Positions 12,813 to 28,800 of a stretch of 64,000 nt of DNA are shown here, one piece after another (position 1 is the first letter of the stretch; every line of letters begins with the position of its first letter). The DNA is taken from positions 97,932-161,931 of the forward strand of contig DAIDHS010000001.1 of assembly GCA_027451985.1 (NCBI GenBank), read 5' to 3'. The DNA comes from Elusimicrobiota bacterium (GTDB taxonomy: Bacteria > Elusimicrobiota > Elusimicrobia > UBA1565 > UBA9628). A program made the position numbers and the translations under genes. The notes under the pieces were generated by a model, which was not told where the DNA came from, made no database searches, and was given only the letters and a program-made list of their open reading frames with translations.

Positions 12813-15398
12813 ATGGCCGATGAAAATTCGAATTTGAACAAGAACGGGGACAAGAAGGACGACAAGAAAGACGCCCTTCCTCCCACGCTCAAGGACTTCC
12901 AGAAAACCCGCATCAAATTGCAGGGCTCGGGTCCGCGCACGCTTCTAGAACGCATGAAGTCGTTCCGCAAAAAAGATTTGATGTTCATCCTTTCGGGTTT
13001 GGGGGTCCTGGTGGCGGCGCCTTTGGCCGAGCATTTGATGATGGGCTCGCAGCCCAACAGCGGCTTTCATCAGGGTTGGGATTTTAAGAACGGTTTGGGC
13101 GGCTTTGGCGGCGGCGGTTCGCCCTACGAGCCCGGCATCAACGGCTTGGCTCCGGGCCAGGCCGCCGGCGGCAACGGCGACATCATCACGCCCTTCAACG
13201 CCCGCGATCCCGCATCGCTCATTTTGAGCCCAGACGCTTCGGCCCAGCCGCCCGTGGGCTCCTCGAACGCGCCTTCATCCGACAGTGGCGGCCAGGACAA
13301 CGGCCAAGCGCCGTGGAAGAACGTGCTGGCCCAGGCCGGCGGCAACGCCGCGAACGCGGCGAGCCAAAGCGCCGGCCTGCCCACCGCGCCTCCCGCCTTG
13401 GGCGACGGCATTTTCAGCGCGCACGGTCCCGCGAACAGCACTTCGGCCTCTTACACGCCGCCCCCGATTTCGGCGGCCAACGTTCCCAATAGGGCGGCGG
13501 GCAACGACTCTTTGTCGCAGGTGCACGGCAACGGCGTCAGCGGCGCCTCGCCTTACGGCTTGACCAACGGCGGTTCCGCGGAGGGCTTGAAGAGCGCGGC
13601 CAACCAAGCCGGCGCTTATTTCAACCGGCCGACCTCGGCCGCGGGAAATTTGGAGAAGGCCGCCGCCGTCAACACGCCGACCGGCGGTTCGGGCAGCGCG
13701 GGCTCCGGCATGGGCGGGTCCCAGCAAGATAAGAATTCCGGCCAGGACTCGAACAAGAACAGCAAGTCCGCCGGAGAATCGCTGGCGGAGAAAGCCGCCG
13801 AGCAGAACCAGCAGCACGCCATCGATTTGTATTGGAAGAAGCTTGAAGAGCAGCAGATGGCGCCCATTAAGCTGCAGGAAGATATTCAGAAGACCATCGT
13901 CGAGACTCCGATTAAGGCCATCATGGATGAGGTCGGCAAGCAAATGGCTGCTGAGGTTAAGAAACAGTTTGCGGGCGCAGATACCGAATATACATGTACC
14001 AACGTCCCGGCTGAAATCGCAAAACAGATTCCGAACGGAATCTTCTATAACTGTGGTACTTCTGAAGCGAATAGTTTTTATTGCGTAAGCACTGATGACA
14101 ATTCGACGCTTATTGAACAAGATCCTACAGGTGCTGAAAAAGGTGGACCAAGCAGTAAGCCTACAGGCGCTACTTGCTCTGCATTGCCTTCTAAGGCTCC
14201 GCCTGATGGTGGTGGCGGACCTAACGGCGCTGGCAGCGGCCAGGCGGTCAACTTGATTGGAAACAAGAGCGCGGAAGCTGTCGATGCGGGCGCCTCGGCC
14301 ATCCTGGTTAATTTGGACAAGCTTTGCAACGCGGCTTCGGCTAATGAACAGGCGGTTCATCATATGTTTTCCGGCAACACAAGCATGCCGTTCGCTCATG
14401 ACGCAGGGAAAATCTATAATTCTACTTCAAAGACCGGTCCTGCGCATGATGTCGCCAAGGCTGTATATGAGCTGAGCGGAGACGCCTCCGAGGCCTGCGG
14501 TGTCAGTGGCGATGGTCATGACACGGCCATGGGACAAATTGGCGCTGCCAATACGAGCCTGAAGGCGGCTCGGTTTGACTTCCAGAGGGTTGCGGATAAT
14601 GATGGCGCAGCTTCGGATATCGCCGTCAAAATATTGTGTGGAGATTCCCAATCCTGCCAGCTTTCTCAAGTGGCAAAAGATGCCGCAGCCGGGAATGCCC
14701 AGGCAGTTCAGAATTATTGGAAGCCTATCCCGCAGCAGCTTCAACAAAACACTAAAAATGTGGATGGCAGCCTGACACAGGCCCAGGCTGCTCTGAAAAA
14801 AGGAGAGAAGGATATGGAAGCCGCAAACGCGGCCTTATCTAAAGCCGATAAAAAGATTGCGGACAATACAAACAATGGACCAGCTGCCGCTGAACAGATA
14901 AGCACCCTTATTAATGGAGATGGGGCCGGTTCCCCGTTTGCCAATTTTAAAGGAACGGTAGATAAGATTCAATCCAGTTACCCGCAATTGGTCGCGGCAG
15001 CTCAGAATCAGTCGGCCTCCTATCATGCTTTTGCCCAAACATACGCCCAACTACAGCCACCAGCACAAGCGGTTGTGAACGAAACTCAGCAGTCGTTGAC
15101 TCAACCGGCGCCTAATCCGCCGGCAGATCTTTCGTTAATAATGAAAAATCAATATTCTTTTGTTACACTCATGAATACAGATACTGCAACAAACGTGATA
15201 TCTAAGACGTTGAAATCTATAAGTAATTTTTGTCAAGAAGAATGGAACACCCAGGAAACTGTTGCTAAGGCGGAGTCGAATTTTGCGACTCAAGTGGCTA
15301 AGGCTCCTTTGGCGCCTGCACAAGGCGGCCAGAACGCGACTCCTAGCGCGAGCGATGCCCTGACTCGTCTTGGTGGGGCGTCCGCGTCAGCGCAATAA
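12813..15398 (+). CDS. hypothetical large membrane-anchored low-complexity surface protein
   Basis: 861 aa. AGGAG RBS. Single TM near the N-terminus (LMFILSGLGVLVAAPLA). Long G/A/S/N/Q-rich extracytoplasmic region with scattered Cys. The 3' ~1.5 kb of the gene has clearly lower GC than the rest of the window. Confidence 0.55.
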   Translation: MADENSNLNKNGDKKDDKKDALPPTLKDFQKTRIKLQGSGPRTLLERMKSFRKKDLMFILSGLGVLVAAPLAEHLMMGSQPNSGFHQGWDFKNGLGGFGGGGSPYEPGINGLAPGQAAGGNGDIITPFNARDPASLILSPDASAQPPVGSSNAPSSDSGGQDNGQAPWKNVLAQAGGNAANAASQSAGLPTAPPALGDGIFSAHGPANSTSASYTPPPISAANVPNRAAGNDSLSQVHGNGVSGASPYGLTNGGSAEGLKSAANQAGAYFNRPTSAAGNLEKAAAVNTPTGGSGSAGSGMGGSQQDKNSGQDSNKNSKSAGESLAEKAAEQNQQHAIDLYWKKLEEQQMAPIKLQEDIQKTIVETPIKAIMDEVGKQMAAEVKKQFAGADTEYTCTNVPAEIAKQIPNGIFYNCGTSEANSFYCVSTDDNSTLIEQDPTGAEKGGPSSKPTGATCSALPSKAPPDGGGGPNGAGSGQAVNLIGNKSAEAVDAGASAILVNLDKLCNAASANEQAVHHMFSGNTSMPFAHDAGKIYNSTSKTGPAHDVAKAVYELSGDASEACGVSGDGHDTAMGQIGAANTSLKAARFDFQRVADNDGAASDIAVKILCGDSQSCQLSQVAKDAAAGNAQAVQNYWKPIPQQLQQNTKNVDGSLTQAQAALKKGEKDMEAANAALSKADKKIADNTNNGPAAAEQISTLINGDGAGSPFANFKGTVDKIQSSYPQLVAAAQNQSASYHAFAQTYAQLQPPAQAVVNETQQSLTQPAPNPPADLSLIMKNQYSFVTLMNTDTATNVISKTLKSISNFCQEEWNTQETVAKAESNFATQVAKAPLAPAQGGQNATPSASDALTRLGGASASAQ

Positions 15399-15481
15399 TG
15401 TTTTTATTTCCAGGTTGCCGCCTTTTGCGCGGAGAGTCTCTTGGTGTGTGGACAAAAAACGGAACTCCTGCTATTCTTTTT

Positions 15482-15533
15482 GGGCCTAAAGTCCTATTGA
15501 CAGCTAGGCCCTTTGGGTCTGGCGAAATAGGAC
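15482..15533 (+). promoter_or_regulatory. nested inverted repeats (GGGCCTA/TAGGCCC and GTCCTATT/AATAGGAC) enclosing a TTGACA hexamer, upstream of the secreted-protein gene
   Basis: gggcctaaagtcctattgacagctaggccctttgggtctggcgaaataggac. The 8-mer arm is shared with the hairpin at 18278. Confidence 0.4.
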
Positions 15534-15554
15534 CGATGGGTTTACAACAGTAAT

Positions 15555-18173
15555 ATGAAGCGAACAGCGACGGCGGCCCTGGCGGCGGCGATTTTTGCTG
15601 GCCTTTCCGGCGTGGCGCTCGCGCATGAAGACGCGCCCAAAAATCCTGAAAGTTCCCAAGGGACGCTGGAGACCGTGGTCGTCTCCGCTCCGTCCTATTG
15701 CGAGGAGGAAGGCGACGCGGCGGCCGCTAAAATGGCCGCTGGGAATATTTTCCTCAGGGACGTGCTCAAGCAGGGCATGCCTACCCAGTTCCCTCCCGGG
15801 GTGTCCGATTGTCTGGACCAATGGTTCGACGTTTCGTCCCGTTCGGCCGCGGATTTGAAGGTGGAGTGCGAGATGCTCTATTCGCCCAGGGGATCGATGC
15901 AGATGAGATCCGAAGCGGTGCGCTATGGGAAGGCGCATCATCTTACCGCAAAGACGCCTTTGGGTGCGCCGACACCGCAGGACTCCACGGCGCCGCTCCC
16001 GACCTTGGGTTGCGGTAAGATTGACGGGTTTTTGTCGGATTTGGAAAGCGAAGCGAAGAGGTTGGCGCCGAAGATTCTCGCGCAGCAGGCTGCGGAGGCC
16101 AGAAAGCAGGAAAAAGCGGAAGAGCAAATTCCAAACGCATTCTCTATCAAGAAATCTCCCGGCAGTGTGAACGCGGCTGGCGCGGACTCTGTCACACCAA
16201 TTAAGGCCTCAATGTCCTCTTTGGCCGATACCACATCCTATGTGATGGTTCCTGAACAAGACGCCGGCGACATGTATCTCGCCGGCGCGGAAAAAGAGAC
16301 GGTCTGCCTTCCGCCCGCTCAAGGCGGCAAATGCTGGAAGCTGGCTCTAAAGGTTGTCTCCAGCGTCGGAGCCGCGGACCAGGCCGGCGTCGGCAAGGTG
16401 GGAGATAATTACATCGCCGTGGTGGACTACACCAACCCGGAGCATATCACTCAGGTGACTTTCCCCGATGTAGTTTGCAATCCCGCGGGTTCTTCGCCGT
16501 GCAATAGTTTTGATTTATCGGGCGAAGGGAAAAAATACAAATTCAGCCTGGGCCGCGACGACGACGGAGGCCTCACGATTTTCCGCGCCGATTCAGGGCC
16601 GGCGACCAGACCGCCCAAGAAGAAAGGGTTCTGGGGCGGTATTGAGAACTTGTTCAATGACGTCAAGTACGATGTCGCCAGCATGCTCCATGGCACCACG
16701 CTGACGCCGGTGGCCTACACCTCAACAGCGCAGCTCTACATGGATCGCAACGACGAGATTCAAAACCGCCCCACCGCCCAAGTGACGCTTGGCGGGCAGA
16801 AATTCAACATCATCAGCCAGGGCGGACCGCGCGGATGCCTGCTCTTTTTTGCCGTGGGCGCCGACGGCGGCCCCATGACGACCAACGACGGAGAGTATCC
16901 GGGATACAAGCCGAACATGATGGCGTGCGTCAATCAGGCCGAACCCGATGGCGTGCCCCAGATGATTTCCGGTCCGCAGTGCCTGGGCAGCTTTCCGCAC
17001 GGCGACCAAAGGGATACATATTCCATTCAGTGGCTGCCGCATTCTGCGGGAGGGATAGGGAGCGATTATAAGATCAACAAGATCCCGGAAGGCACCGGCG
17101 CATGCGCGCCGCCGGATCCCGCAGGATCCAAGCCTGACAAGCCGTCGGGTCCCGCGAGCAATCCCGGAACCAATCCGACGCCGGCTTCGAACAACCAATG
17201 CCAGTCCGGAGAGGTGCTTCAGGGCAAGACCGGCAAATGCTGCCCTTCCGGCGAGCAGCTGAGCGCGGATGAAAAACAATGCGTTACGCCGGATTCCGGA
17301 CAAAACCAGTGCGAATATAATTTGAACGGCGAAAACGCCTCTGGCAACGCAAAAATGAAGGTTCGGGATTTGGGCGATGGCTATGCTCTTTATCTTGGAA
17401 CCTATGATGCGGGGCAAGGCACAAAACTGTATCAATCGTATGTTTGCGATGAGAGCCGTATGATACAAGTCCCGGGAGTGGTTTCCGGGAATGTTCAATC
17501 CAAGAACGGCGAGATCAGCATTACGGCGTACAATCTCGGATATGACGGCAGTGTTTCACCCAAAGATTTTGCGGACATGACCCCTTTCCCAGCCGCTAGT
17601 GACGTGGCCAAGAAAGGCTTTCCTGAGGATTTTGTGAAACTCAAGGATGGTCACGACTTGGAGTTCTCGAAGTATAATCAAGGGTCAAATGCACAGATGT
17701 CAAAAGCACAGATTTACAATCTCCCCGAGGACGACTTCGGAACTTCGGCGCCTAAAAAAGCGCTGCTGTCGCAAAATGTAGCGAGTTCGATCGTAGCCAT
17801 CGATCCGCTCAGGAACGAAGTTTCCGAGATCGATGTTTATCCGCGCGGGGGCAGCGTTACGGCGGCGGTCCGAAACGCCATCAATAATCAGCTTCAAAAT
17901 ATGGATAAAGATCAGGCAGCCGCCCTTCAAAACGATAAAAATGGAGTTTTGAAGGATAGTTTGGGATTGCTTCCCTCGGATGCGTCCGTGGAGATTCATT
18001 TCGTATCGGGGCAGAACGCGTCCCAGGCGACTGGTTGCAGCCCGGCCGTAACCGCTTCCTATAGTGCCAAGGGCAAGACTGTGAGCAAGACCCTTGTGGA
18101 TTACCAGTTCGGCAAGCCTGCCGTGACGCTGTCTCCGTTTATGGCGCGTTGCGAGCCGAAATCGAAGCCGTAG
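15555..18173 (+). CDS. hypothetical secreted Cys-rich protein
   Basis: 872 aa. Cleavable signal peptide MKRTATAALAAAIFAGLSGVALA. Many Cys pairs (CCPSGEQLSADEKQCVTPDSGQNQCEYNL; GKCWKLALKV; VVCNPAGSSPCNSF). No enzymatic motif recognised. Confidence 0.55.
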   Translation: MKRTATAALAAAIFAGLSGVALAHEDAPKNPESSQGTLETVVVSAPSYCEEEGDAAAAKMAAGNIFLRDVLKQGMPTQFPPGVSDCLDQWFDVSSRSAADLKVECEMLYSPRGSMQMRSEAVRYGKAHHLTAKTPLGAPTPQDSTAPLPTLGCGKIDGFLSDLESEAKRLAPKILAQQAAEARKQEKAEEQIPNAFSIKKSPGSVNAAGADSVTPIKASMSSLADTTSYVMVPEQDAGDMYLAGAEKETVCLPPAQGGKCWKLALKVVSSVGAADQAGVGKVGDNYIAVVDYTNPEHITQVTFPDVVCNPAGSSPCNSFDLSGEGKKYKFSLGRDDDGGLTIFRADSGPATRPPKKKGFWGGIENLFNDVKYDVASMLHGTTLTPVAYTSTAQLYMDRNDEIQNRPTAQVTLGGQKFNIISQGGPRGCLLFFAVGADGGPMTTNDGEYPGYKPNMMACVNQAEPDGVPQMISGPQCLGSFPHGDQRDTYSIQWLPHSAGGIGSDYKINKIPEGTGACAPPDPAGSKPDKPSGPASNPGTNPTPASNNQCQSGEVLQGKTGKCCPSGEQLSADEKQCVTPDSGQNQCEYNLNGENASGNAKMKVRDLGDGYALYLGTYDAGQGTKLYQSYVCDESRMIQVPGVVSGNVQSKNGEISITAYNLGYDGSVSPKDFADMTPFPAASDVAKKGFPEDFVKLKDGHDLEFSKYNQGSNAQMSKAQIYNLPEDDFGTSAPKKALLSQNVASSIVAIDPLRNEVSEIDVYPRGGSVTAAVRNAINNQLQNMDKDQAAALQNDKNGVLKDSLGLLPSDASVEIHFVSGQNASQATGCSPAVTASYSAKGKTVSKTLVDYQFGKPAVTLSPFMARCEPKSKP

Positions 18174-18277
18174 GCGCGGATACAAAACTTCCGGCTTTCC
18201 GCTAAATACTCCATAATTTCCCTTGAAATTTGTTCTTTTAGGGGTTATATACGAAACGTGATTTTGCAAGCAGGAGA

Positions 18278-18305
18278 AATAGGACTAAGGTCCTATTTTT
18301 TATTT
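18278..18305 (+). terminator. hairpin AATAGGAC-taag-GTCCTATT followed by TTTTATTT: intrinsic-terminator-like, or operator, between the 872-aa gene and the giant gene
   Basis: 8-bp perfect stem, 4-nt loop, U-tract, plus strand. Sits 105 nt after the upstream stop and 49 nt before the giant-gene ATG. Confidence 0.45.
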
Positions 18306-18353
18306 AGGCCCTTAGGCACTGGCTCGTCGGGTTCTTAGAGATACACTGATACT

Positions 18354-21300
18354 ATGGCGTCAAAATTCTTGGCGGCAGCGCTGGCCTTTTTGACCGCGCT
18401 TTTCCCCGGCCTCCAGGTCGTCTGCGCGCAGGCGATGAGCGCGGTCGAAATTCCCGCCCAAGGGAATATCAACCCGCAGAACATCTCCAGCCTGAATCTC
18501 TCGCTGAATCAAATCAACGACTTGATTCATTTGATCCAGTCGAACGAAGCGCAGAGCGCGGGTTCTCCGTTCGGTGCGAACCTGTCCCAAGAAGATTTCA
18601 ACCAGATGCTCCAGTACCTGGAGCAGCTTAAAGCATACTATGGCCACTCCGGACGGACGATGCCTCGGGCCGTGGCGCAACGGGTCCAGACGCTGATGCA
18701 GGATATCAAGAGCGGCAAGGTGGATCCGGGCATCGCGTTCGCCAATTTCTACGCGGGCACCGCGCCGGCGGTGGAAGCCGTCCAGACCGGGGACATCACC
18801 GAGAAGCCAAGTTATCCCAATGCCCGTGAAACCGACATCGTGCGCAAGGATTCCGTCACCGGGAAGGTGGTCTCTTATTTACGGAGCATCCAGGAAGACG
18901 CCGTGGTCCGTCTGGTCATCAGCAGCTTGCCCGATGCCTCAGCGCCTGGAGGCAAGGCGGTTGACATCATCGCGTTCGTGGGGCAGGAAGGCGCGGCCCA
19001 GGTCCAGCACCCGCTTTATAGCCGGGGCATGGAGATTTTGCTTAAGGCCCTGGTTAAGCTGTATTACCAGCAGCCCGATTTGCAGGCAAAAATTGACAAG
19101 GCCTCCGGCGCGGCCAAGGCCAAGCTCCAGGCCTTGTTGGCGGCGAACCGAAAAACCTTCCCTCCGGAAATTAATTCCTACCTTCATCATCTGGGGCAAA
19201 TCGAGAGCGAGAGCGGCGGATTGGCCGGCCACGACTGGACCGACGCGGACTATCAGGAATATGAGAAGGTCGCCCAGATCGCCCAGGACTTTTACGCCAA
19301 AAAAGAAGGAACCGGCCTGGAAAAGCGGGCGCTGGCCATCTTCACCAGCTACATCGCCATGGCGACGAACAGCAACCCCGTGCAGGAGAAAGACGGGCTG
19401 CAGGAAGGAGGGCTTGATGCCGAGCCCATGGCCCAACTGCAGAAGGCGCTGACCAGCTTTGAAAAGGGCCAACTATCCGGCTATAAAACCATCTTGTCCT
19501 GGCTCCACGACACGCGCATCAATTATGCGGATTGGCCGGCTCAGATCAGCCAGCAGGCCGCTGAAATCGTGGCCGACTTGGGATACGCTTCCTCCGACGC
19601 TGGCCAGGCCTTCGCGCACACGACAGGCTCCATGCAGAAAGGGAAAGCCGCGCAATTGGACCGGCAGGAGCACGAAGCCGCGTTGGCGGCCCGCAACGGC
19701 TGGCTGAACCTGTCCAACCTCCAAATCCTGTCGTTCCAGATGAAGATGTTGGCGATTGCCGTTGCCAAGCTCAAGTACGGTGACATGCGCGGGCACGTGG
19801 GGATTCAGGGCGATAAGAAAATGCAGGATGAGGCCGATCGCCTGATAAAGACGCTCGAGCAATACCTGATGCAAATCGAGGAATGCGTCAAGCAGTCGCG
19901 GGATAATTTAATGAGGCAGGCTATTGCCGGTTTTTACCTCGATTTGCAGAATGCGCAGATGAGCTATCTCTATGGCGGCGCCCTGCGCAATCAGGTTTTG
20001 GACATGGCGGCCAAGCTCGAGGAGATGGAGAGCCTCTATCTGTCCCAGCAGTTTGACAAGAAAATGACCGGCCTGCGCTCCGCTGATGAAAGTTCCGCCA
20101 TGGCCGGCAACGCTTACAAAGAATTCCTGGCGCATCTTCCCCCGGATGTCGTTCCGTTGGTCAAGTCCATGGATGCCTTGCAGGCCGAGCTGAAATCCAT
20201 CGCGGGCCTCAATGATTCAAAAGCGATCCGCCAAGCTCTCTGGCCTGTGTGGAAGCAATTCGCCGCCATTGCGGAAAAGCTGGGCTATCGGGGAATCCCG
20301 GATGAAGACACGGTGGACAAGGACTCCAAGGCTTTGTCGCTCAAACAGGCTAAGCTCATGCAGGCGGCGCAGCAATTCGCCATCCACTTGAACATGTTCG
20401 ATACGGCCAACCAGTACAACTTGATTCTTCTGCAAAACGCCAGTTCCCAGCGGCTGCCGGGCGTCAGCGATCATTGGTACAGCAAGTTGCCGCAGCGGGC
20501 GGAGGGAGCGGTGATTTCCGGCGGCGCCAAAGCCATCAACGGGGTGACCAACGCCGGCATTTGGCTCCTGAACAGGCTTCCCGGGGTTAATATCTCCTAC
20601 AAGCACATCCATGCCAGCTATGATTCATTGACGGACGCGGGCGTTGAGCACGATGGAACGCTGGTGACCGGTATGCTGCGCGGGGTGGGCGACAGTGTTT
20701 CCTGGAATTCCACGCTTTTCCACAACTTCATGATCCGCAAAGACTTGCGCGCCAAGATGCTTGATCAGCTTCGCGCGGGCGATTTCACTGGCGCGGAGCA
20801 GACTTGGGTCGACATAGACCCAAGCGGCGCGGCGCAAGCGTGGGACATGCACATCCGCGAGAAGGCTCCGGACGACAATCTTTACAATCTGGATATTGGA
20901 AAATTCGTGGCTCACGCTCCGGACGACAGGTTGATGGTGGAATCGGGGGGCGCCATGCAGGATTTGGGCATGATGCTCAAGCCCATCATCATGGCCTACC
21001 AGCTGACTTCGGCGGCCATTGATACGGTCGTCATGACGGTCGTCACGCTCGGTTTCGGCGCCGCAGTCGGCACGACATTGCGCGCCGTGGGCGGCGCGGG
21101 GGTGGCAATCGCCCGGGGGCTGGGCATGACCGCGGACGCGGCGGACGTGGCCGAAGGTCTTGGGGATGCCGCCAGAGCCGGGGAATTGGCCTCGGATGCC
21201 GCCGACGCGGCTGATGTCGGTGCTAACCTTGGGCAAGATGCTAAAGATATCGGAACGATCCGCCGGATTGCGTCTTCGACCATCGGATTTATAGGCAAGC

Positions 21301-24300
21301 ACTTGGAATCTTGGGGAACGGGCATGCGCAACGTGGTCGGATTGTCCGACGTTTCCCAAGGCGCGTCCAAGGCCGTCGTGCTGCGGCAGATGATCCAGTC
21401 GTCCGCGAAATTTACCGTGGGCAACGCGGTCATGATGTCCGGCGTTTCCGCGGGCATTTCAGGCGTTGACTATCTGCGCCATCCGGAGACGTCGAACGCT
21501 CAAAACTTCTGGGACGCGTCGCTTGAAGGCGCTATCGGAGGACTGTCCTTCGGCGCGCGCTCCGGCCCTCTGTTCTTGCTCATGCCGCAGGCTTCGGCAT
21601 TCGGCGCCGGGACCATGGGCAAGGCCGTTCGCGGCTTGGCTGATTCTCCCGGGCCTCTCAATGGATTGGTCCGCCTTGGGGCGAAGCTAATTCCTGGAGC
21701 CGCCGACACGGAGATTGGGGGCGCTTTGATAGATAAAGGCTTGTGGGGGTCCATCGGGACTTTGGGCGATTCTCCGCTTTTAGAGCAACTCGCGCGGACC
21801 TCGGCGCACTTCGGAGCGATGGTCGACGGCGCCTTGAAATACATGACCGCCAATTCGATTGCGGAGAATGCCGCGCAATTCGCGGCTTACGAGCGAGATG
21901 CCCACAAGACGCTTGGCGCGGCGGAGAAAAAACAGTTGGCGGACGAGGGATCGAGCCAACGCACTTACGCTTTACGGTCGGCTTTATCTGCGGGAGACGC
22001 TGCGGGACAAGCCAGTTGGTTCCTGATTCCCCAGAATCAAATGGGCAGCGCGAAGGATCGGGAACAAGGGATTACGCATGCCGGGGCGCTCAGCGAGATG
22101 CTTCATCAGGATCGCGGCCTTGATATCGAGATGGCGACCAAAGACCAAACGCTCTATGTTGATAAGCCGTGGCTCCAGCAATCCTGGAGAGAGCGGGCTC
22201 GCGGCCTGGGGAATTTTCTTTTCTCAAGCGAGCATAAGGCGACCGCGCCGCGCATGGAGCTAAAAGTAAGCGAGGCGGATCGGGAAGCGGCCGCTGTTGA
22301 GAGGATGAAGGATTTCAGCGGCGCGGATCTTTTGGCGGTCACGGAGGCGCCCAGGGATGAGGTGCGCGGGAAAGTCCTCGGGCTTTCCGATCTGAAAGGA
22401 ATGCTGGGCGGGGAATACGACGGTGCGCCCGAGGCGCCGCAGCCGGCAGGGAATGTCGTGGATATCTCCCAGGAACGCACTAGGCGCGGCACGAAGCAGA
22501 AAGCCAAAAAAATCGAAGCTGAGAGCGCGAGGACTTACGAAAATCTGCCTCAGCGGGATAAATTGGACGCTCAGAGCGTGCGCATGAGCGATGAAATTCA
22601 GGAGGCGGCTCGTTCCCAGCTCAAGAAGTGGCTTAAGAATAACCCGGATGAAATTGCGAAGATTCGGACGGCTGTGGAAGCGGAGAAAAACGGGAAATCC
22701 GGGAAATACATGATGCCTGATGGCAAAGGAGGAGAAATCGCCGTGCGCGGCGAGCCTTTGAAGAAGCTCGCGAATTTGGCGGCGCTGCAGGAAATTGCCT
22801 CCGGAGCCCAGCCCCGCACGGCGGCGGAAAAAACGAAGGCTTACTGGGAGCGCGTCAAGGATTCTTTAAGCGGCAAACCTATTAAGGACGGTTATCAAGT
22901 CCTGGTTTCCGATCTGCGCGGGGAGATCCACGGCGATACGGCGAAGGAAATCATCGATTCGACCCAGCAGGCGCTTCAGAACAGAATTGATTTAAGAAAG
23001 TCGCAAGGCAAGGAGAATAAGACGTGGGCGCTGGAGCAGGTCCGCTCGACCATAGAGTCGGATGCCTACATAGATTACGTCAACCGCAAGATGGCCGAGG
23101 ACATATCCGCTTACCGGAAAGGGAATCTTTCCGATGCGCAGCTCGACGCGGACGTTAAGCTATTCCGGGACGTTTGGGAGGAAGGCGTCTTCGGCAAGCG
23201 GTTTAAGAAGAGCGCGGACCAGAAAGGTAACGCGGTGTGGGATATCCCACCCGAATACCAATTCAAAGACGCTCACGGTCATCTCGTGACCAGTTTCAGG
23301 GATTTCCAAGCCGCCTCCATCGAATCGGTTATCAAGGATTTAGCGGCGGGACGCAATAAAATTTTCCGCCTTCTGGAAACGGGCGGCGGAAAGACTCTTT
23401 TAAGCTTCACCCTGCTAAGCCTTTTTAACACCATGGCGCAAATGAAGGGCCGCGAGGGCGCCATTTACGCGACGTCCAACGCGAACTTGGTCGCGCAGGC
23501 CAATGAGGCCTACCGGGCGTTTTTTAAGGGCCGCGAGGCGCCGTTCAAGATCGAAACCTATGAGCAGGTCATGCTGGATCAGGCGCTGGCCCAAGCCCAT
23601 GGGCGGCTGAGCCCTTACCAGACGCATTATGTCATCAACGACGAGTACGATCAATTGGGCACGCAGACGGCTCTGTCATTGGGTAGTCCCAACGGTCGAT
23701 TGAGCTTCCCATCCATCGATCCAATTCAGGCGGCCATGCGGGAAGGAGCCTTGGAGGCGCGCGGCACACTGCACGACGAGTTCGGCGGAAAGGATTTGGA
23801 TGAAAAATCCATTGCTGAGCTGCAAAGGGAAAATCCAGCTTTTGCGGCGAAGATGGACGCGTTGAGCGCGCACACGGCCAGCAATATTCAGGAAGCCATC
23901 CGCCGAGTGAACTCGAAGGCGTTTAAAGCGCAGGTGCTGGATATCCACTCTGAGCTTTACCGAAAAGCGCAGGCGAAAGGGCAGATTCCAGAGTTTTCGT
24001 CCGTCGCAGAGTATGAGGCATATTTCCATATGACGCCGGAGCAGGTTTACGGCACGATGCAGAGGGAAGTTAAGCACGCTTTCGGCGAATACGCGTTGCC
24101 CGGCTGGGTGCAGACCGCTTTCCATTGGGCGCACCTTGATCTTCCCATGCCTGAAGCTCTGCAGAAGGCGACAAAGAGCCGGACTTTTATGGCCGGGTTG
24201 CCGCTTGACGCGTTCGTTAAGGTCGGGGTGATTGAGCGGCAATTCGGCAGTCTGCAAGATTGGATCAAGGATAACCTTGAGGGCGCCTATATCGTGGGTT

Positions 24301-25736
24301 CTTTCAGCCCGGAGAAACTCTCTGCGATCTATGCCCGCGGCGAAGAGGTCGACCCGAGCCATCCGGAAGAATTGCACCAGTACCACGCGGACGTGCCCAT
24401 GGCGAACTTGGACACCAAATACCGCGGCGCGCTCCAGCTGATTGAGAACAAACCCCTGGAACTCAAGTACGACAATATGGCTGTCGTTGACTTCGCGGCG
24501 TTGAATGCGGCTGCGCGCGAAGGCGGCGGCGTGGTGGTGGCTTTGTCGGGAACTCTCCCTGGGCCGGAAAGACGCTTTTTGAGCAAGCAGGGTTGGAAGG
24601 TCTCGGGAGAGGGCAGCGCCCCGGCGCAGGTTGAATACAAAGCCGTCGAGCCCGGCATGGCTGACAGTGTACTGGCGAAAGACGTTGCTCAGGACGCCAA
24701 GATTAACGGCGCCGGGAAAGAGAAGGTTCTGCATATCGTTTTCCTGCCCAACAAGGCTCAGCAAAGAGCCTTTGAAGCGAAGCTTGAGCAGGCCGGCGTT
24801 CCCGCCTCCCGGCGTTCCGTGGTGGTAACGCCCGACTCCAATTTGCAGGAAAATGAAAGACTGATGTATCAGGTGCGGGACGCTAAGAACTTGAAGGCTT
24901 TGAGCAAGGGCGACGTTGACGTGGCCATGATCGTTGGACGATCGGGCATTCGCGGGCTGGACATCGATTTCGGGGCCTACGCTGGCGGGCGCATTGAGTT
25001 CGACATCATCGATCCTCAGGATTTGTCCATGACCGATCTTATTCAGCTCGTCGGACGAGCGGCCGAGGGACGCCTGCCTAAGAATACCAGCGGCAAGCCC
25101 TCCATCTCGGTTAGCTTCCACGGGATCGTGGACAGCAAGGATTTGCCGGAGTCGCTGAGGAAAATTGAGGGTACGCCGGAATTCAAGGCCGAGTTTGAAA
25201 AATATGTTCAGCAGGCGCAGAAAAACGCGGAAGAGGCGGCTCTGAAATCCTCCGGAATTTATGATTACAAAGCGCCGCAACTTCCCAAGTTTTTACGGTT
25301 CATGCAGAAAAAAGCGCCGAAGCCTTCAATTCGCGTGCCGAGCGGAACGGGTGTGGGTGGAGGTCAAACACAGGTAGTCGTGCCGCAAGGCAGCTCTGTT
25401 GAACCGATGGCAAAGCGAGTCAAGGACGAGGAAGAACGACCGCTGTGGTCTTCCTCTCCAAACGTGACGTGGCAGGAGAATGCCCGGCGATATTGGAATA
25501 GCCACCGCAGCAAGTTCCCGGAATATAAGAATTGGCGCGAGTACGTCAAGGGAGCGAACGAGTTCGTCAATCGGCCGCCACTGGGTACCCTGGCTAAAAC
25601 CCAGCCTAACGGCGATGTCGTTCTTTATAACCCTCAGACCAACACCTTCGTCATTCGCACCGCCGATGGGGTTCCGCGAGCGATGTTCAAACCTAAGGCT
25701 GGTATGAAATACGCGGCTAAGTACCTCGGCCAATAG
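18354..25736 (+). CDS. giant 2460-aa protein with signal peptide, central hydrophobic segment, embedded SecA-like DEAD-motor ATPase and a distinct ~110-aa C-terminal module
   Basis: Signal peptide MASKFLAAALAFLTALFPGLQVVCAQA. Hydrophobic segment AIDTVVMTVVTLGFGAAVGTTL at ~aa 880. The motor region (nt ~23260-25090) has Walker A FRLLETGGGKTLLSFTLLSLFN...ATSNANLVAQANEAY (SecA: [22 protein letters not shown]...TVNDYLAQRDAE), the DEAD-equivalent HYVINDEYDQLGTQTALSLGSPNG (SecA: [22 protein letters not shown]), motif III VVALSGTL, motif V MIVGRSGIRGLDI (SecA: ATNMAGRGTDI) and motif VI LIQLVGRAAEGRLP (SecA: NQLRGRSGRQGD). C-terminal module ...WNSHRSKFPEYKNWREYVKGANEFVNRPPLGTLAKTQPNGDVVLYNPQTNTFVIRTADGVPRAMFKPKAGMKYAAKYLGQ. 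Confidence 0.7.
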   Translation: MASKFLAAALAFLTALFPGLQVVCAQAMSAVEIPAQGNINPQNISSLNLSLNQINDLIHLIQSNEAQSAGSPFGANLSQEDFNQMLQYLEQLKAYYGHSGRTMPRAVAQRVQTLMQDIKSGKVDPGIAFANFYAGTAPAVEAVQTGDITEKPSYPNARETDIVRKDSVTGKVVSYLRSIQEDAVVRLVISSLPDASAPGGKAVDIIAFVGQEGAAQVQHPLYSRGMEILLKALVKLYYQQPDLQAKIDKASGAAKAKLQALLAANRKTFPPEINSYLHHLGQIESESGGLAGHDWTDADYQEYEKVAQIAQDFYAKKEGTGLEKRALAIFTSYIAMATNSNPVQEKDGLQEGGLDAEPMAQLQKALTSFEKGQLSGYKTILSWLHDTRINYADWPAQISQQAAEIVADLGYASSDAGQAFAHTTGSMQKGKAAQLDRQEHEAALAARNGWLNLSNLQILSFQMKMLAIAVAKLKYGDMRGHVGIQGDKKMQDEADRLIKTLEQYLMQIEECVKQSRDNLMRQAIAGFYLDLQNAQMSYLYGGALRNQVLDMAAKLEEMESLYLSQQFDKKMTGLRSADESSAMAGNAYKEFLAHLPPDVVPLVKSMDALQAELKSIAGLNDSKAIRQALWPVWKQFAAIAEKLGYRGIPDEDTVDKDSKALSLKQAKLMQAAQQFAIHLNMFDTANQYNLILLQNASSQRLPGVSDHWYSKLPQRAEGAVISGGAKAINGVTNAGIWLLNRLPGVNISYKHIHASYDSLTDAGVEHDGTLVTGMLRGVGDSVSWNSTLFHNFMIRKDLRAKMLDQLRAGDFTGAEQTWVDIDPSGAAQAWDMHIREKAPDDNLYNLDIGKFVAHAPDDRLMVESGGAMQDLGMMLKPIIMAYQLTSAAIDTVVMTVVTLGFGAAVGTTLRAVGGAGVAIARGLGMTADAADVAEGLGDAARAGELASDAADAADVGANLGQDAKDIGTIRRIASSTIGFIGKHLESWGTGMRNVVGLSDVSQGASKAVVLRQMIQSSAKFTVGNAVMMSGVSAGISGVDYLRHPETSNAQNFWDASLEGAIGGLSFGARSGPLFLLMPQASAFGAGTMGKAVRGLADSPGPLNGLVRLGAKLIPGAADTEIGGALIDKGLWGSIGTLGDSPLLEQLARTSAHFGAMVDGALKYMTANSIAENAAQFAAYERDAHKTLGAAEKKQLADEGSSQRTYALRSALSAGDAAGQASWFLIPQNQMGSAKDREQGITHAGALSEMLHQDRGLDIEMATKDQTLYVDKPWLQQSWRERARGLGNFLFSSEHKATAPRMELKVSEADREAAAVERMKDFSGADLLAVTEAPRDEVRGKVLGLSDLKGMLGGEYDGAPEAPQPAGNVVDISQERTRRGTKQKAKKIEAESARTYENLPQRDKLDAQSVRMSDEIQEAARSQLKKWLKNNPDEIAKIRTAVEAEKNGKSGKYMMPDGKGGEIAVRGEPLKKLANLAALQEIASGAQPRTAAEKTKAYWERVKDSLSGKPIKDGYQVLVSDLRGEIHGDTAKEIIDSTQQALQNRIDLRKSQGKENKTWALEQVRSTIESDAYIDYVNRKMAEDISAYRKGNLSDAQLDADVKLFRDVWEEGVFGKRFKKSADQKGNAVWDIPPEYQFKDAHGHLVTSFRDFQAASIESVIKDLAAGRNKIFRLLETGGGKTLLSFTLLSLFNTMAQMKGREGAIYATSNANLVAQANEAYRAFFKGREAPFKIETYEQVMLDQALAQAHGRLSPYQTHYVINDEYDQLGTQTALSLGSPNGRLSFPSIDPIQAAMREGALEARGTLHDEFGGKDLDEKSIAELQRENPAFAAKMDALSAHTASNIQEAIRRVNSKAFKAQVLDIHSELYRKAQAKGQIPEFSSVAEYEAYFHMTPEQVYGTMQREVKHAFGEYALPGWVQTAFHWAHLDLPMPEALQKATKSRTFMAGLPLDAFVKVGVIERQFGSLQDWIKDNLEGAYIVGSFSPEKLSAIYARGEEVDPSHPEELHQYHADVPMANLDTKYRGALQLIENKPLELKYDNMAVVDFAALNAAAREGGGVVVALSGTLPGPERRFLSKQGWKVSGEGSAPAQVEYKAVEPGMADSVLAKDVAQDAKINGAGKEKVLHIVFLPNKAQQRAFEAKLEQAGVPASRRSVVVTPDSNLQENERLMYQVRDAKNLKALSKGDVDVAMIVGRSGIRGLDIDFGAYAGGRIEFDIIDPQDLSMTDLIQLVGRAAEGRLPKNTSGKPSISVSFHGIVDSKDLPESLRKIEGTPEFKAEFEKYVQQAQKNAEEAALKSSGIYDYKAPQLPKFLRFMQKKAPKPSIRVPSGTGVGGGQTQVVVPQGSSVEPMAKRVKDEEERPLWSSSPNVTWQENARRYWNSHRSKFPEYKNWREYVKGANEFVNRPPLGTLAKTQPNGDVVLYNPQTNTFVIRTADGVPRAMFKPKAGMKYAAKYLGQ

Positions 25737-25787: not shown

Positions 25788-25816
25788 TTGAAAATTCAGC
25801 AAACGCCCGCCATAAT
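25788..25816 (+). promoter_or_regulatory. sigma70-like promoter TTGAAA-N17-CATAAT upstream of the 5277-aa gene
   Basis: ttgaaaattcagcaaacgcccgccataat. The -10 ends 8 nt before the ATG at 25825, which would make that start leaderless. Preceded by a weak hairpin ggcagagtcgctgcc after the upstream stop. Confidence 0.45.
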
Positions 25817-25824
25817 ATCCCGTC

Positions 25825-28800
25825 ATGCGAGGGGAATTCCGTATGGGACTAAAGGCCTGGGGAACCCTGGGCCTTTTTAATCCACCTCGGGGGGCCATTA
25901 GACTCTCTTCAGGGCAACCGCTGACCAGTATTCTATTCACATACGCGCGCATGAAAAAGGTTCTTTATAAGCTGACGGCCGTCGTGGTGACGGGAGCGCT
26001 GTTGCTCCTGACTCCGGGCATTTCCTGCTATCAAGTTCTCGCGCAGGATGTCAGCGCCGAGAGCGAGCAGAGCCAGACTCCGGTCAACATGAACTTGGGC
26101 GGGCAACTGGAAACTGTCCCGCTTGAGCAGATGGCGGTTAATCCCGCCGCAGGCGGCCTTTACCAGCTTCCCGACATTCACGTCCCGCCGTCCGAAACCC
26201 TTCCGGTTGGCGCTTCAGCAGTAAAATCCGCGGCTCAATCCGTTTCCGCGTCGGCACAGGCCGCTTCCATTCGGGCGCAATCGGTGCCCGCTGTGGAGGG
26301 TGCGCAAACCGCCGCGGCGGCTCTGCCTGAGACGCCCGCTGCCGCGGCCCTCTCTAATGGCGCCGCGTCCGTTACTCAAGGGCGCGTCGGGACCAGACAG
26401 AGATATTCCCGCGCCGCGGCTTTGTCCGCCGCTCAGGATGGGAGGCAGGCAGTTCGCCTCGGGTCTTTGGGCTGGCTTCGGAGCACCGCCGGCAAGGTGC
26501 GTAGCTGGATTAAACCCGGCGCTTCGGCCGCGAACCTCAAATTTGAGTCCAACAAGTCTTTCGACGCGGCCTACGGGAAATCGGCGGCCGTTCCGTCTGC
26601 AGGAAAATCGGAATCTTTGAGACCCGGCCGCAAGGGGCGAATCGCAAGAACCCTGGGACTTGCCGGGGCCATCGCCGTGCCCGCTGCCGCGGCCGCCATT
26701 CCGCTGCCGGCGAAGGCTGCAGCCGTCGTACACGCCGCGGCCCATTCCGGCCTCATTCATAGCGTCGGGCTGACGTTCCACGCGATTTTGACGGCCATTG
26801 GCCCCGCCGGCATCCATGCCATTTACCTCAGTATGAATGTCTTGGCCGCCGGGTTGGCCTTGCCCGAAGTCCTGCGGACGTTCCGACGCGGCAGCGCGCA
26901 TCAGGTTCCCATGGGCGAGTTGACCATGGCCGTGGTCGGCTCCGCCATCTTCGGACTCATCATCGGCCCGATGAAAGGCTATTGGGGCTGGGCCGCGCAG
27001 AATAACTATGGCGGCTTGTCCATGCTGGCCGTTCTTCCCATCGGCTGGATTTTAGGCCGCGGGGGCGTCAAAATTTTCGGCAAGCGCTTCTGGGGTCCCA
27101 TCCCGGAGCCGCAAAAAACGGAGAATCCCTCCGCGGAAAAACCGGGGCTGCTCAGGCGCATATGGAACGGCTTCAAAGATCCCGCGGTTTTGAGAACCAT
27201 CGCGGCGGCGGCGCTCATCGGAGTTGCGGCCGTTGGGTTCACCCAATTGGCCGCCGCCGTTGGCCCGGCAATTTTCCCGCCGCTCTTGAATTTCGTCGCT
27301 TCCTTGTTCCCGACTACGGCTTCGGGCATGGGTCTTTTGACGGCAGCGGTGCTTTCGGTCCCCGGCTACATCGCGCTCAAGTGGCTGCGCGGGCTTTTGA
27401 AGAGCCCGGTGTCATGGAAAAAGAAGGCGCTGCTGGGACTGCCGCTTCTGGCCGCTTTCCCGGCGATGGCCTTCTGGCTTTGGCCGATGGCCAGCGCCGG
27501 GGCCTTGCCCATGACGGCGGACAAGCTCGTTTCACTCCTGAGCGGCTTGGGCGGGGGGCTCTTCGTCTTCTTGTTCGCTCCCGAGGTCATCCGGGCGTTG
27601 ATTGTGGGTGAGGATTCCTCCAAGCACTTCAACTGGCGAACGTCGCTTATTTTCTCGGTGGCAAGCTTGGGATTCCTGATTTATTGGGGCAACCAGTATT
27701 TCGTCAACCCCGCGTCGATGGGCGTGGCCATGTCCAACATGATCCAAAACGCCATCGGGGGGCTCTTCTCGACCATCAGCTTCTTGCTGGCTTGGAAGCA
27801 CAGAAACCATAAGGTGGCGTCGGCTGCGGAGGAGAACGGTAATGCCGCCCGCGTCGCTGCGGCCGGGGAGGCCGAAAAAATCTCAAATCCCGGACAGGCG
27901 CCTCCGGATCGCTCGCCGCCCGGAGAAAGTCCGGGCGCGCCTAAAACCGAGGGCGAAAACCTCTCGCCCCACGTTTACGAAAACATCTTCGGTTTTAGAG
28001 GAATCAAGGGCCGTTCCTACGCATCCGCCGACAGCAAACTCCAGCCTCTCACCTCTCGCTCCACATCATCCCAGATCGTCGATCGAATTTCCTTTCAATT
28101 TAATATCTCTCGTGACAAAGTATTACTTATAGCATCTCGGCAAGGGATTTCGGAGGCGGCTCCGGCTGCCAGGTGGTTGGCGGTCTACGAGCGGCTCCAG
28201 AAGTCCAACTACGAGCGGTTCAAGGAGTTGGATCACGCCAAGAACGCCGGCCATGGTCTTTTTGGCGAGGCGATCCGGAAAGCCTGGGCTCGGCTGCGGG
28301 GCAAGGCGGCGCCGGACACGGCAGGGTTCCGCAGACTCGCCAACAAGACCTATGCGCCCGGCGCCAAGGGAGTGCTCCAGCGCGCGGCCGGAGTCCATCG
28401 CCTCGTAATCGGCTTCTGGATCGGCTTTGTCTACGAGTGTTTCGACTCCTTCATCCTGGGCTACTTCCGGCAGGCGATAAGCTTCCATTTCCGCCACCGG
28501 AACGAGGACTTCCTAGGCATCGCCGCTGGGCGACAAGACGAACAGGCTGGCGCCTTGTCCGAAAACGCCCTGGCCGCCGCCATCGCCGGCGTCCAGGGCC
28601 GGGGCTTGACCGCGATGGAGCGTTTCAACGCGACGGCCGTGGGGCACGCCGTGTCCGGGGCGGTCATCCGGCCGTTCGTCCACCCCCTGCTGACGTTCCT
28701 GCGCCGCCGTTTAGTCATGGCTCTCCTAAGCGCCGTCGCCATGGGGTTTTTGGGCGCCGCCGCGCCAGCCATGCCGTTTCTGTCCATTTCAGTTTTGACC

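Follow-up and report, generated by a model that had tools for sequence, protein, structure and literature searches.

The lambda O_R region (O_R1-O_R2-O_R3) is a tripartite phage operator that is bound cooperatively by CI and Cro dimers. The ARG boxes of ArgR, the NrdR boxes and the paired LexA boxes of colicin promoters are imperfect palindromes of 14-18 bp at fixed spacing that overlap the core promoter, and such sites are common to several operons of one regulon. In the CIRCE/HrcA system, a single 9-N9-9 inverted repeat is reused at two or more operons, at or downstream of the transcription start, and a dual role in DNA and RNA is conceivable. Promoters of leaderless mRNAs, in which a -10 box is followed after 6 nt by a start codon with no SD sequence, are common in Actinobacteria, Deinococcus-Thermus and archaea. 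To our knowledge, transcription control is almost unexplored in Elusimicrobiota, a phylum known chiefly through metagenomes, and literature searches yielded no account of Elusimicrobia promoters or of the motif reported here.

The locus studied here lies in a 64,000-nucleotide stretch of an Elusimicrobiota genome (the window), in which a gene for an 872-aa secreted protein and the first giant gene (2460 aa, 7.4 kb) are each preceded by an array of palindromes. By textbook comparison the array resembles lambda O_R: short spacers put the centres of three imperfect 16-17-bp palindromes ~24 and 23 bp apart, the two promoter-proximal ones overlap one promoter at its -10 and -35, and the distal site abuts a second promoter, which lies upstream at the 872-aa gene and is divergent at three other loci (L026, L030 and L032). 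Only the geometry is similar. Unlike O_R, the array has neither an adjacent repressor gene nor a phage context, and two scans of viral contigs found no match; its half-site sequence is unrelated, it stands before several chromosomal genes in many taxa, and its cooperativity is purely inferred.

With the ArgR, NrdR and LexA operators the array shares its fixed-spacing imperfect palindromes, their overlap with the core promoter and their occurrence at several genes, and its cargo (a toxin-bearing giant protein and secreted nucleases) recalls the SOS-controlled bacteriocins. It is not known to match any of those consensuses, however, and it has three units rather than two, with a period of 23-25 bp as against 21 bp for ARG boxes and 31-32 bp for NrdR boxes. 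Like CIRCE it is one inverted-repeat element used more than once, but it consists of three 6-N4-6 units of other sequence and, outside the window locus, lies upstream of the start. The start regions resemble leaderless promoters, which are frequent in these genomes, except that the repeat array stands in for the -35 and that a leaderless start is predicted here for a giant gene. The array is a new motif, though its kind is familiar, and it brings no new regulatory principle.

The repeated 8-mer is a fragment of a conserved array

The word AATAGGAC/GTCCTATT occurs six times in the window, counting both strands, where 0.49 copies would be expected, and none of 100 shuffles reached six. Four copies fall in the upstream regions of the 872-aa gene and the first giant gene; the other two are in coding sequence, at 15692 (within the 872-aa gene) and 57912 (tatC), and look like chance occurrences. 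The letters on which the original prediction was built are correct: GTCCTATT (15491-15498) and AATAGGAC (15526-15533) are separated by 27 nt upstream of the gene at 15555, and AATAGGAC-taag-GTCCTATT (18278-18297), followed by TTTTATTT (18298-18305), precedes the giant gene. The first pair of arms is not nested inside GGGCCTA...TAGGCCC as proposed: GGGCCTA is at 15482, but TAGGCCC (15505) falls within the 27-nt spacer between the arms, and the two pairs of repeats are interleaved. The TTGACA in that spacer (15497) was considered as a -35 box and rejected, since no -10 hexamer follows it at a distance of 16-18 nt and orthologs have ATGACA, TTTATT or TTGATA instead.

The resemblance between the two upstream regions is genuine, but it is not that of a mere 8-mer in opposite order: they share a collinear 77-nt block that ends at each ATG (Table 1). 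The repeated 8-mer is real, yet it is only part of a larger conserved unit, a ~65-bp array made up of three imperfect palindromes.

Table 1. Features of arrays A and B and of the degenerate copy C, in window coordinates
Feature	Position	Strand	Remarks
Promoter upstream of A, sigma-70-like, TGGACA-N17-(TG)cTATTCT	15449..15477	+	Called by promoter scan
Element A, 77-nt conserved block	15481..15557	+	Runs to the G of the ATG (15555-15557) of the 872-aa secreted-protein gene
A unit 1, TGGGCC-TAAA-GTCCTA	15481..15496	+	Alignment positions 1-16; holds arm GTCCTATT
A unit 2, TAGGCCC-TTT-GGGTCTG	15505..15521	+	Positions 25-41; 3' end overlaps -35 position (CTGGCG, 15519-15524)
A unit 3, TAGGAC-CGAT-GGGTTT	15528..15543	+	Positions 48-63; left half is the second arm, AATAGGAC
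-10 slot of A, TACAAC	15543..15548	+	6 nt before ATG; invariant in 5/5 class-A copies
Promoter-like element upstream of B, TTGAAA-N17-TATATA	18223..18251	+	28 nt before element B; kept in 4/4 orthologs
12-bp hairpin (18274-18301) and U-rich tract	18274..18305	+	From folding; window-specific
Element B, 77-nt conserved block	18280..18356	+	Runs to the G of the ATG (18354-18356) of the 2460-aa giant gene
B unit 1, TAGGAC-TAAG-GTCCTA	18280..18295	+	Core of the tight palindrome originally noted
B unit 2, TAGGCC-CTTA-GGCACT	18305..18320	+	Overlaps -35 position (CTGGCT, 18319-18324)
B unit 3, TCGGGT-TCTT-AGAGAT	18327..18342	+	Degenerate; weaker than unit 3 of classes A, X and R
-10-like hexamer of B, TACACT	18342..18347	+	6 nt before ATG; predicts leaderless giant-gene mRNA
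Degenerate third copy C	25844..25878	+	Precedes giant gene 2; a unit-1-like TGGGACTAAAGGCCTG merges into a GC hairpin with U5

The block was named the Elusimicrobiota three-unit T[AG]GGNC promoter array, a family defined within this analysis, and its instances were sorted into classes A (872-aa gene), B (giant gene), X (peptidase gene, locus L007) and R (riboswitch-linked nuclease genes). Matches in coding sequence (L009, L010, L012, L017 and L021) were set aside as chance pattern matches, and partial matches that lack the left half of unit 1 (L015, L018, L020 and L022) were left out of the evidence. All sequences come from metagenome-assembled genomes (MAGs) and represent few independent lineages.

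Element A aligns without gaps with its four orthologous copies and with element B, and the block remains ungapped across nine A and B copies from five genomes, whose flanking proteins are merely 46-53% identical. It holds three T[AG]GGNC-N4-G.NCCT units, 23-25 nt apart, which start at positions 1, 25/26 and 48 and have their centres ~24.5 and 23 bp apart; each is an imperfect 16-17-bp palindrome with the half-site T[AG]GGNC. All three units are present in element A, while in B the first two are present and the third is degenerate. In unit 1, T1, G3, C6, G11, C14 and A16 are invariant over 17 instances, and the position pairs 1/16, 3/14 and 6/11 are invariant and complementary, in keeping with dyad symmetry. 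Unit 2 is invariant at T25, G27, G28, C30, G35, C39 and T40 in 13 aligned instances, and T48, G50, G51 and C53 of unit 3 are invariant or nearly so.

The element is kept at every orthologous locus, which was the test that the original prediction had set for itself. What is kept is not the identical 8-mer, whose reuse is peculiar to the window genome: B unit 1 is a perfect palindrome there only, and 14 of the 17 instances have a mismatch at positions 5/12. Given these mismatches and the lack of covariation in the within-unit helices, where every covariation measure was at or below the shuffled mean, the conservation is one of sequence and not of pairing.

A chance repeat, or a dispersed palindrome of the REP or MITE type devoid of regulatory meaning, could be suspected from the reuse of short palindromic words and from the two additional 8-mer copies in coding sequence. 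REP, BIME and MITE repeats occur in many copies, in either orientation, typically at 3' ends or between convergent genes, whereas the array is found in few copies and every instance is 5' of a gene, co-oriented with it and at a fixed distance. The related MAG DATLUA01 has two strict copies, both at this locus, and the window has no copies besides A, B and the degenerate C. As the array is moreover conserved between genomes with ~50% protein identity, this explanation is already effectively refuted.

The array recurs upstream of unrelated genes

Class R comprises arrays upstream of the 2'-dG-II riboswitches of HNH-nuclease genes, at seven distinct loci in seven taxa, and in class X the array precedes a Peptidase_M74-like gene whose GTG falls exactly at position 75. 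A hidden Markov model (HMM) built from classes R and X, with no window-related sequences, recovered A with E=3.9e-10 and B with E=2.8e-6; a second HMM, from five nuclease loci fetched by protein homology alone, gave E=5.3e-8 and E=2.7e-4, respectively. With both models A and B were the sole significant matches in the 64 kb. Copy C matched weakly (E=0.6 in the window and E=0.048 in L004) and is kept in L001 and L004.

The common operator that had been proposed for the two window genes is hence borne out as a shared, conserved cis-element, but it is not locus-specific, since the array is also present at the nuclease and peptidase genes. The gene upstream of the array is divergent in L026, L030 and L032, and L011 and L016 have unrelated genes upstream of the array but share 66% identity in the gene downstream of it. 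The array is therefore part of the downstream promoter and not a product of read-through.

The array keeps a fixed register to a predicted promoter with no canonical -35 box

All four gene contexts carry the array in one and the same register to the core promoter. In the R, B and X instances a TAnnnT hexamer is always found at positions 62-67 or 63-68 (TAAACT, TATCCT, TATACT, TATAAT, TATTCT, TACACT or TACCAT), and the riboswitch P1 or the start codon follows 6-7 nt later, at position 74-75; this holds for B (TACACT, ATG at 75), for X and for 7/7 class-R loci. In the orthologs of element B the hexamer is TACACT in three cases and TATACT in L005. The ATG of element A is likewise at position 75, but its TACAAC lacks the key final T and is a poor -10, where the same slot is TAnnnT in the other classes; this counts against reading the array as a DNA operator. 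The -35 slot (CTGGCG, CTGGCT, CCCTGG, CTCTTT and others) is never TTGACA-like, whereas ordinary promoters of the window have TTGACA-like -35 boxes. The consensus promoter scan does not call the array-linked promoters.

No SD sequence precedes the ATG of the 872-aa gene or that of the giant gene. In the window, leaderless-type starts (TAnnnT-N5-8-start) are found at 17 of 79 gene starts (22%), compared with 1.2% of random positions. It is probable from this arrangement that the giant gene is also transcribed as a leaderless mRNA, which the array-linked promoter CTGGCT-N17-TACACT-N6-ATG would yield.

It could be that RNA polymerase reads the promoter directly, through an alternative sigma or a polymerase-associated factor and with no separate regulator, the T[AG]GGNC repeats being extended upstream promoter elements. 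The rigid register to -10 and start across four gene contexts and the missing canonical -35 would both fit. The -10 is, however, of the ordinary sigma-70 type (TAnnnT), and the repeats are palindromic and reach to -74, past normal sigma contacts. On inspection of the alignment, sigma-54 was rejected because the GG of unit 3 stands at -25/-24 but -12 is occupied by the TA of the -10 box, with no GC at that position and no TTGC; sigma-28 was rejected on its spacing and -10 elements. Direct reading by polymerase is accordingly judged improbable.

A second promoter-like element lies upstream of each array in the window. That of A is kept in L001, L005 and L013, with a variant form in L004, and its predicted start falls within A unit 1. 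That of B reads TATATT in L001, its distance to the array varies (19, 19, 28 and 38 nt), and it is not called by the promoter scan because its last base is A. These conserved elements suggest that the array is probably transcribed here too, in which case an added role at the RNA level is possible.

RNA structure and termination

An RNA-level account would have a structured 5'-UTR, made from the upstream promoters, control how stable both mRNAs are or how they are translated independently of an SD, perhaps with the help of an RNA-binding protein, with nested helices in A and a hairpin between units 1 and 2 in B. With the upstream elements as promoters, the array would belong to the leaders of A, B and C, both ATGs lack an SD, and the A leader folds with -33 kcal/mol (z -4.1). 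Palindrome mismatches are more often of the G·T than of the A·C type (26 vs 3 in unit 2), as top-strand RNA pairing (G·U) would also give. The covariation of the nested fold with the arms is marginal: 11-29 of 500 shuffles reached the observed values, which is within the tool's stated false-positive range, and none of the proposed helices covaries significantly.

Pair counting gave one compensatory pair in class B, but none in class A, where several pairs are broken. The consensus folds of the two classes (RNAalifold) differ from one another, and the class-B ortholog folds are no better than shuffles (z -0.6 to -1.85). A scan of 15200-18600 against Rfam 15 (E≤10) returned nothing relevant, the best match being DUF2693-FD (17.6 bits against a gathering threshold of 44.5; E=2.8). 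At the nuclease loci both the -10 and the riboswitch come after the array, and the genes before it are divergent or unrelated, so that its transcription there is not expected. The small repeated RNA structure put forward in the original prediction is not upheld by these data, and RNA control of the two mRNAs appears rather unlikely.

The hairpin before the giant gene had also been proposed as a terminator or attenuator, in which AATAGGAC-taag-GTCCTATT and the following U-tract would end transcription of the 872-aa gene or gate read-through into the giant gene. In the window genome the 12-bp stem with its U-tract recalls a Rho-independent terminator or leader attenuator: at -14.4 kcal/mol (z -4.3 to -5.5) the fold is stable for so small a hairpin, TTTTTTATTT (U6AU3) comes after it, and a T-rich spacer follows unit 1 in all class-B copies. 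The stem has only three G-C pairs, however, and the terminator scan does not call it. Its stability is lost in L001 (-3.8 kcal/mol, z +0.43) and L005 (-6.5 kcal/mol, z +0.09), and L004 pairs differently, so that the hairpin is not conserved. Moreover, its place is after a conserved promoter-like element and not where the upstream gene ends, and the same block occurs in other contexts with no U-tract. Termination was therefore rejected and is given very little probability. What looks like an RNA hairpin or terminator can arise as a side effect of palindromic DNA sites in tandem.

A putative DNA-binding regulator

The interpretation that we favour, as the more probable on the sequence comparisons, is that the array is a DNA-level operator or promoter module for a putative DNA-binding regulator, rather than an RNA hairpin or terminator. 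Dimers of one such regulator would occupy roughly -74 to -12, covering the -35 position and the upstream edge of the -10, and through the shared array the 872-aa gene and the first giant gene would be switched together. Since the window arrays lie at or just downstream of the predicted start of the second conserved promoter, the bound protein would block that promoter too. Because unit 3 overlaps the -10, and because the second promoter lies upstream of the array, we lean towards repression as the inferred direction of control; activation at a promoter that has no -35 would be the less likely alternative.

The transcription factor expected nearby, with a matching half-site, did not materialize: by Pfam, no DNA-binding gene was found among the 28 ORFs of the window or the 14 ORFs around the other instances, none adjoins any array, and the window has no HTH or repressor gene. 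The searches returned sensor kinases only, in the window (41695) and in L032, with no response regulator. The 65-bp array offers a testable bait for finding the putative regulator.

Where the array is transcribed from the upstream promoters, at the giant-gene locus, the DNA operator might have a second, RNA-level action by analogy with CIRCE. More tentatively, the array may be a lineage-wide operator, bound cooperatively in the manner of lambda O_R at promoters that lack a -35, which couples leaderless giant polymorphic-toxin genes, riboswitch-gated secreted nucleases and a murein peptidase in an 'attack/scavenging' regulon; this wider reading is possible but doubtful. The array does link a cluster of Pfam-less giant secreted proteins, one of which has swappable CdiA-type toxin tips in relatives, with secreted nucleases under 2'-dG-II riboswitches, and it hints that a leaderless mRNA may serve even a gene of 7.4 kb.

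A conserved 77-nt block precedes two neighbouring genes

The original prediction had drawn attention to 8-mer arms shared by the upstream regions of the 872-aa secreted-protein gene and giant gene 1, and both their sequences and their coordinates were right. The 64-kb window holds six copies of the 8-mer AATAGGAC or its complement where 0.49 would be expected, a count reached in none of 100 dinucleotide-preserving shuffles, and four of the six lie within the two upstream regions. The remaining two are coding, lack neighbouring units of the kind described below, and look like chance.

Repeat finding (families D10 and D19) revealed two collinear blocks, A and B, in the same order and at equal distance to each ATG, each measuring exactly 77 nt from its first T (position 1) to the G of the ATG. 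A search of 5.8 billion proteins yielded just four relatives of the 872-aa protein, each from an Elusimicrobiota MAG, and their syntenic loci all carry the same block in both intergenic regions. Eight copies, joined by a ninth (L013) from a metagenome scan, gave a gap-free alignment despite flanking proteins that are merely 46-53% identical. A degenerate copy, C, 5' of giant gene 2 is conserved too. The block was kept in all of the relatives' loci, leaving the original prediction unrefuted on this point; the finding is real and conserved, as seen in data drawn entirely from MAGs and from few independent lineages. In one orthologous locus, L004, the start of the 913-aa ortholog was reassigned because the conserved element and a signal-peptide-like N terminus point there.

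Coordinates of the features (window positions unless a locus is named; L001 and L004 are orthologous loci, the other loci carry riboswitch and nuclease)
Feature	Position	Remark
Block A	15481-15557	5' of 872-aa gene
Block B	18280-18356	5' of giant gene 1
Copy C	from 25844	5' of giant gene 2
Promoter-like element 5' of A		TGGACA-N17-TGcTATTCT; called by promoter scan; conserved, predicted start inside unit 1
Promoter-like element 5' of B		TTGAAA-N17-TATATA; conserved; 19-38 nt from array, variable
Other 8-mer copies	15692-15699; 57912-57919	872-aa gene; tatC
GGGCCTA / TAGGCCC	15482 / 15505	
TTGACA	15497	
2'-dG-II riboswitches	L011 2309-2379(-); L016 4310-4380(+); L023, L025, L026, L030, L032 about 2350-2440	
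Start of 913-aa ortholog	L004 9779 (ATG)	called start 10001 is 222 nt too far downstream
Leaderless-type starts	47583; 47079; 56416	47583, glutamate dehydrogenase (GDH)
Sensor histidine kinase genes	41695-43866; L032 1-1203, 3971-5035	no adjacent response regulator
Giant gene 2 leader	25788-25953; L001 20780-20951; L004 20815-20986	
Hairpin in giant gene 2 leader	25851-25878	11 bp
Conserved start of giant gene 2	25951 (ATG)	ORF-finder: 25825
Giant protein 1	18354-25736; L001 12994-20764	
Gene cluster	2673-45272	six large proteins: 542, 363, 861, 872, 2460, about 5235 aa

The block contains three units, starting at positions 1, 25/26 and 48 with centres ~24.5 and 23 bp apart, all of them imperfect palindromes of the form 6-N4-6 or 7-N3-7 built on the half-site T[AG]GGNC. 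In A, the arms first seen correspond to GTCCTA, the right half of unit 1, and TAGGAC, the left half of unit 3; in B, unit 1 supplies both arms. The GGGCCTA/TAGGCCC pair, thought to enclose the arms in A, instead interleaves with them and consists of one left half each from units 1 and 2; the TTGACA lying in between is not conserved and lacks a -10 partner. All of these apparent stems are unavoidable where one quasi-palindrome is repeated in tandem, and within the larger three-unit array the 8-mer, hairpin and terminator count as secondary features or as specific to the strain.

The array recurs in unrelated gene contexts

A degenerate pattern scanned over 185,579 species genomes and JGI metagenomes returned the orthologous loci, a few chance matches in coding sequence, and two unrelated gene contexts. 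The array was present 5' of a Peptidase_M74-like gene (L007) and, in L011 and L016, directly 5' of 2'-dG-II purine-clan riboswitches (Rfam RF03165, 64.5 and 81.5 bits) preceding an HNH-type nuclease gene. To remove ascertainment bias, further nuclease loci were fetched by protein homology alone, and the array preceded the riboswitch in five of five additional distinct loci. An HMM built from these five instances only recovered A (E=5.3e-8) and B (E=2.7e-4), with no other significant match in the window; addition of L007, L011 and L016 gave E=3.9e-10 and E=2.8e-6. Across four gene contexts, 17 non-identical instances are ungapped over ~68 nt, the class B spacer being 1 nt longer; T1, G3, C6, G11, C14 and A16 of unit 1 are invariant in all 17, and 14 carry a mismatch at positions 5 and 12. 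The proposal of a common operator was broadly right in that both genes share the element, but the element is not locus-specific.

2'-dG-II riboswitches have been described from environmental sequences. Here they sit in Elusimicrobiota 5' of genes for secreted HNH-type nucleases, frequently with a divergent S1-P1 nuclease gene alongside, and expression of the HNH-type nucleases would be gated twice, by array and riboswitch.

Register with a predicted promoter and transcription start

A TAnnnT hexamer occupies positions 62-67 in all seven riboswitch loci (63-68 in L030), with varying inner bases (TAAACT, TATCCT, TATACT, TATAAT, TATTCT), and the effective aptamer P1 helix starts 6-7 nt later, at position 74-75. 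Judged by sequence, this spacing behaves like that of a putative -10 box and transcription start, which would place the array 5' of the transcribed region in these loci. L026, L030 and L032 have a divergent upstream gene, and L011 and L016 have unrelated upstream genes whereas their downstream nucleases are 66% identical, indicating that the array is linked to the downstream promoter. The same arrangement excludes the array being a read-through product or the terminator of the previous gene.

Giant gene 1 has CTGGCT in the -35 slot, 17 nt, TACACT (TATACT in L005), 6 nt and ATG, and L007 has TACCAT, 6 nt and GTG; both starts would be leaderless. Of 79 gene starts in the Elusimicrobiota sequence examined, 17 have TAnnnT 5-8 nt (mostly 6) ahead of the start codon, compared with 1.2% of random positions, and many genes there lack an SD. 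Such predicted leaderless-type starts are normal for these genomes. Examples without an SD are present in the window and at several genes in L025, L026, L030 and L032; the glutamate dehydrogenase start reads TTGAGG-N17-TAGAAT-N6-ATG, and the S1-P1 nuclease genes are also of this type. The -35 slot of the array promoters is never TTGACA-like, whereas ordinary window promoters have good -35 boxes. It is quite unlikely, in our estimation, that the array is an unusual promoter working independently of any factor.

RNA-level and repeat-based readings

Conserved promoter-like elements 5' of A, B and also C leave room for the window copies to act at the RNA level, as does an excess of G·T-type over A·C-type palindrome mismatches on the coding strand: 26 versus 3 in unit 2 (positions 25-41) and 6 versus 1 in unit 1 (positions 1-16) over the 17 instances. 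This asymmetry could reflect asymmetric half-site preferences or a single-strand or RNA-level constraint. A structured leader RNA is nevertheless unlikely. RNAalifold folds of classes A and B differ, and in the class A fold several pairs are broken and none is compensatory. Pair counting over 13 instances found no covariation in the three within-unit helices, with all measures at or below the shuffled mean. The nested fold with the arms of A was matched by 11-29 of 500 shuffles, a marginal signal within the tool's stated false-positive range and one also expected from half-sites co-varying with one protein's specificity within a genome. Rfam gave nothing for the window upstream regions.

The hairpin in B had been read as a possible terminator or attenuator. 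With its U-tract it is stable in the window genome (-14.4 kcal/mol, z -4.3), but its equivalents in L001 (-3.8 kcal/mol, z +0.4) and L005 (-6.5, z +0.1) are not conserved as a fold, L004 pairs differently, and the terminator scan did not call it; such a strain-specific primary function is very unlikely. Chance or a REP-like repeat is barely credible, since only two strict copies exist in a related MAG and the element is always 5' of a gene and co-oriented with it. The array also failed the test for a sigma-54 promoter.

A probable operator module

We consider the array probably to be a DNA-level operator/promoter module. One putative regulator, probably dimeric, would bind cooperatively to three sites from about -74 to -12 and co-regulate the 872-aa secreted-protein gene and giant gene 1; in other members of the phylum, secreted nucleases and a murein peptidase would be under its control. 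Repression is favoured by the array's overlap with the -35 slot and the -10 edge and by its position at or downstream of second promoters, although activation is possible given the missing -35. Sensor histidine kinase genes neighbour array loci in two gene contexts that are unrelated, which hints weakly at a two-component regulator.

Lambda O_R consists of three 17-bp imperfect palindromes, centred 24 and 23 bp apart, that overlap one promoter and abut another. The array geometry is closest to tripartite phage operators of this kind. Unlike O_R, however, the array has no phage context and no repressor gene adjacent to its instances; viral contigs scanned gave no array match. The tandem boxes of ArgR, NrdR and LexA are alike in logic but differ in sequence and period. 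A literature search found no description of Elusimicrobia promoters or of the three-unit motif. The motif is new but belongs to a familiar type of element, and it can serve as an entry point to the study of regulation in an uncultured phylum.

Giant genes and surrounding cluster

The giant gene 2 leader carries a conserved promoter-like TTGAAA-N17-CATAAT, the unit-1-like TGGGACTAAAGGCCTG and a terminator-like GC hairpin with U5, in which L004 has U-A for U·G; closer to the ATG there is another -10-like hexamer, TATTCT/TATCCT. Giant protein 1 and its L001 counterpart share 83% identity until ~137 aa from the end, after which the two are unrelated. The orthologous proteins terminate in a CdiA_C toxin domain (E=2e-20), and a SitI3-like immunity gene comes next; in the window the tip is unrecognised and there is no immunity ORF. 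The predicted architecture is polymorphic-toxin-like, without a detectable TPS domain. In the surrounding cluster, MotA/ExbB-like, MotB/OmpA-like, FliG-like+TPR and TPR genes are divergent from those for six large signal-peptide or Pfam-less proteins and a Cache/HAMP/PAS histidine kinase. Three other MAGs share this cluster in synteny, and it may encode an envelope or secretion machine not yet described.
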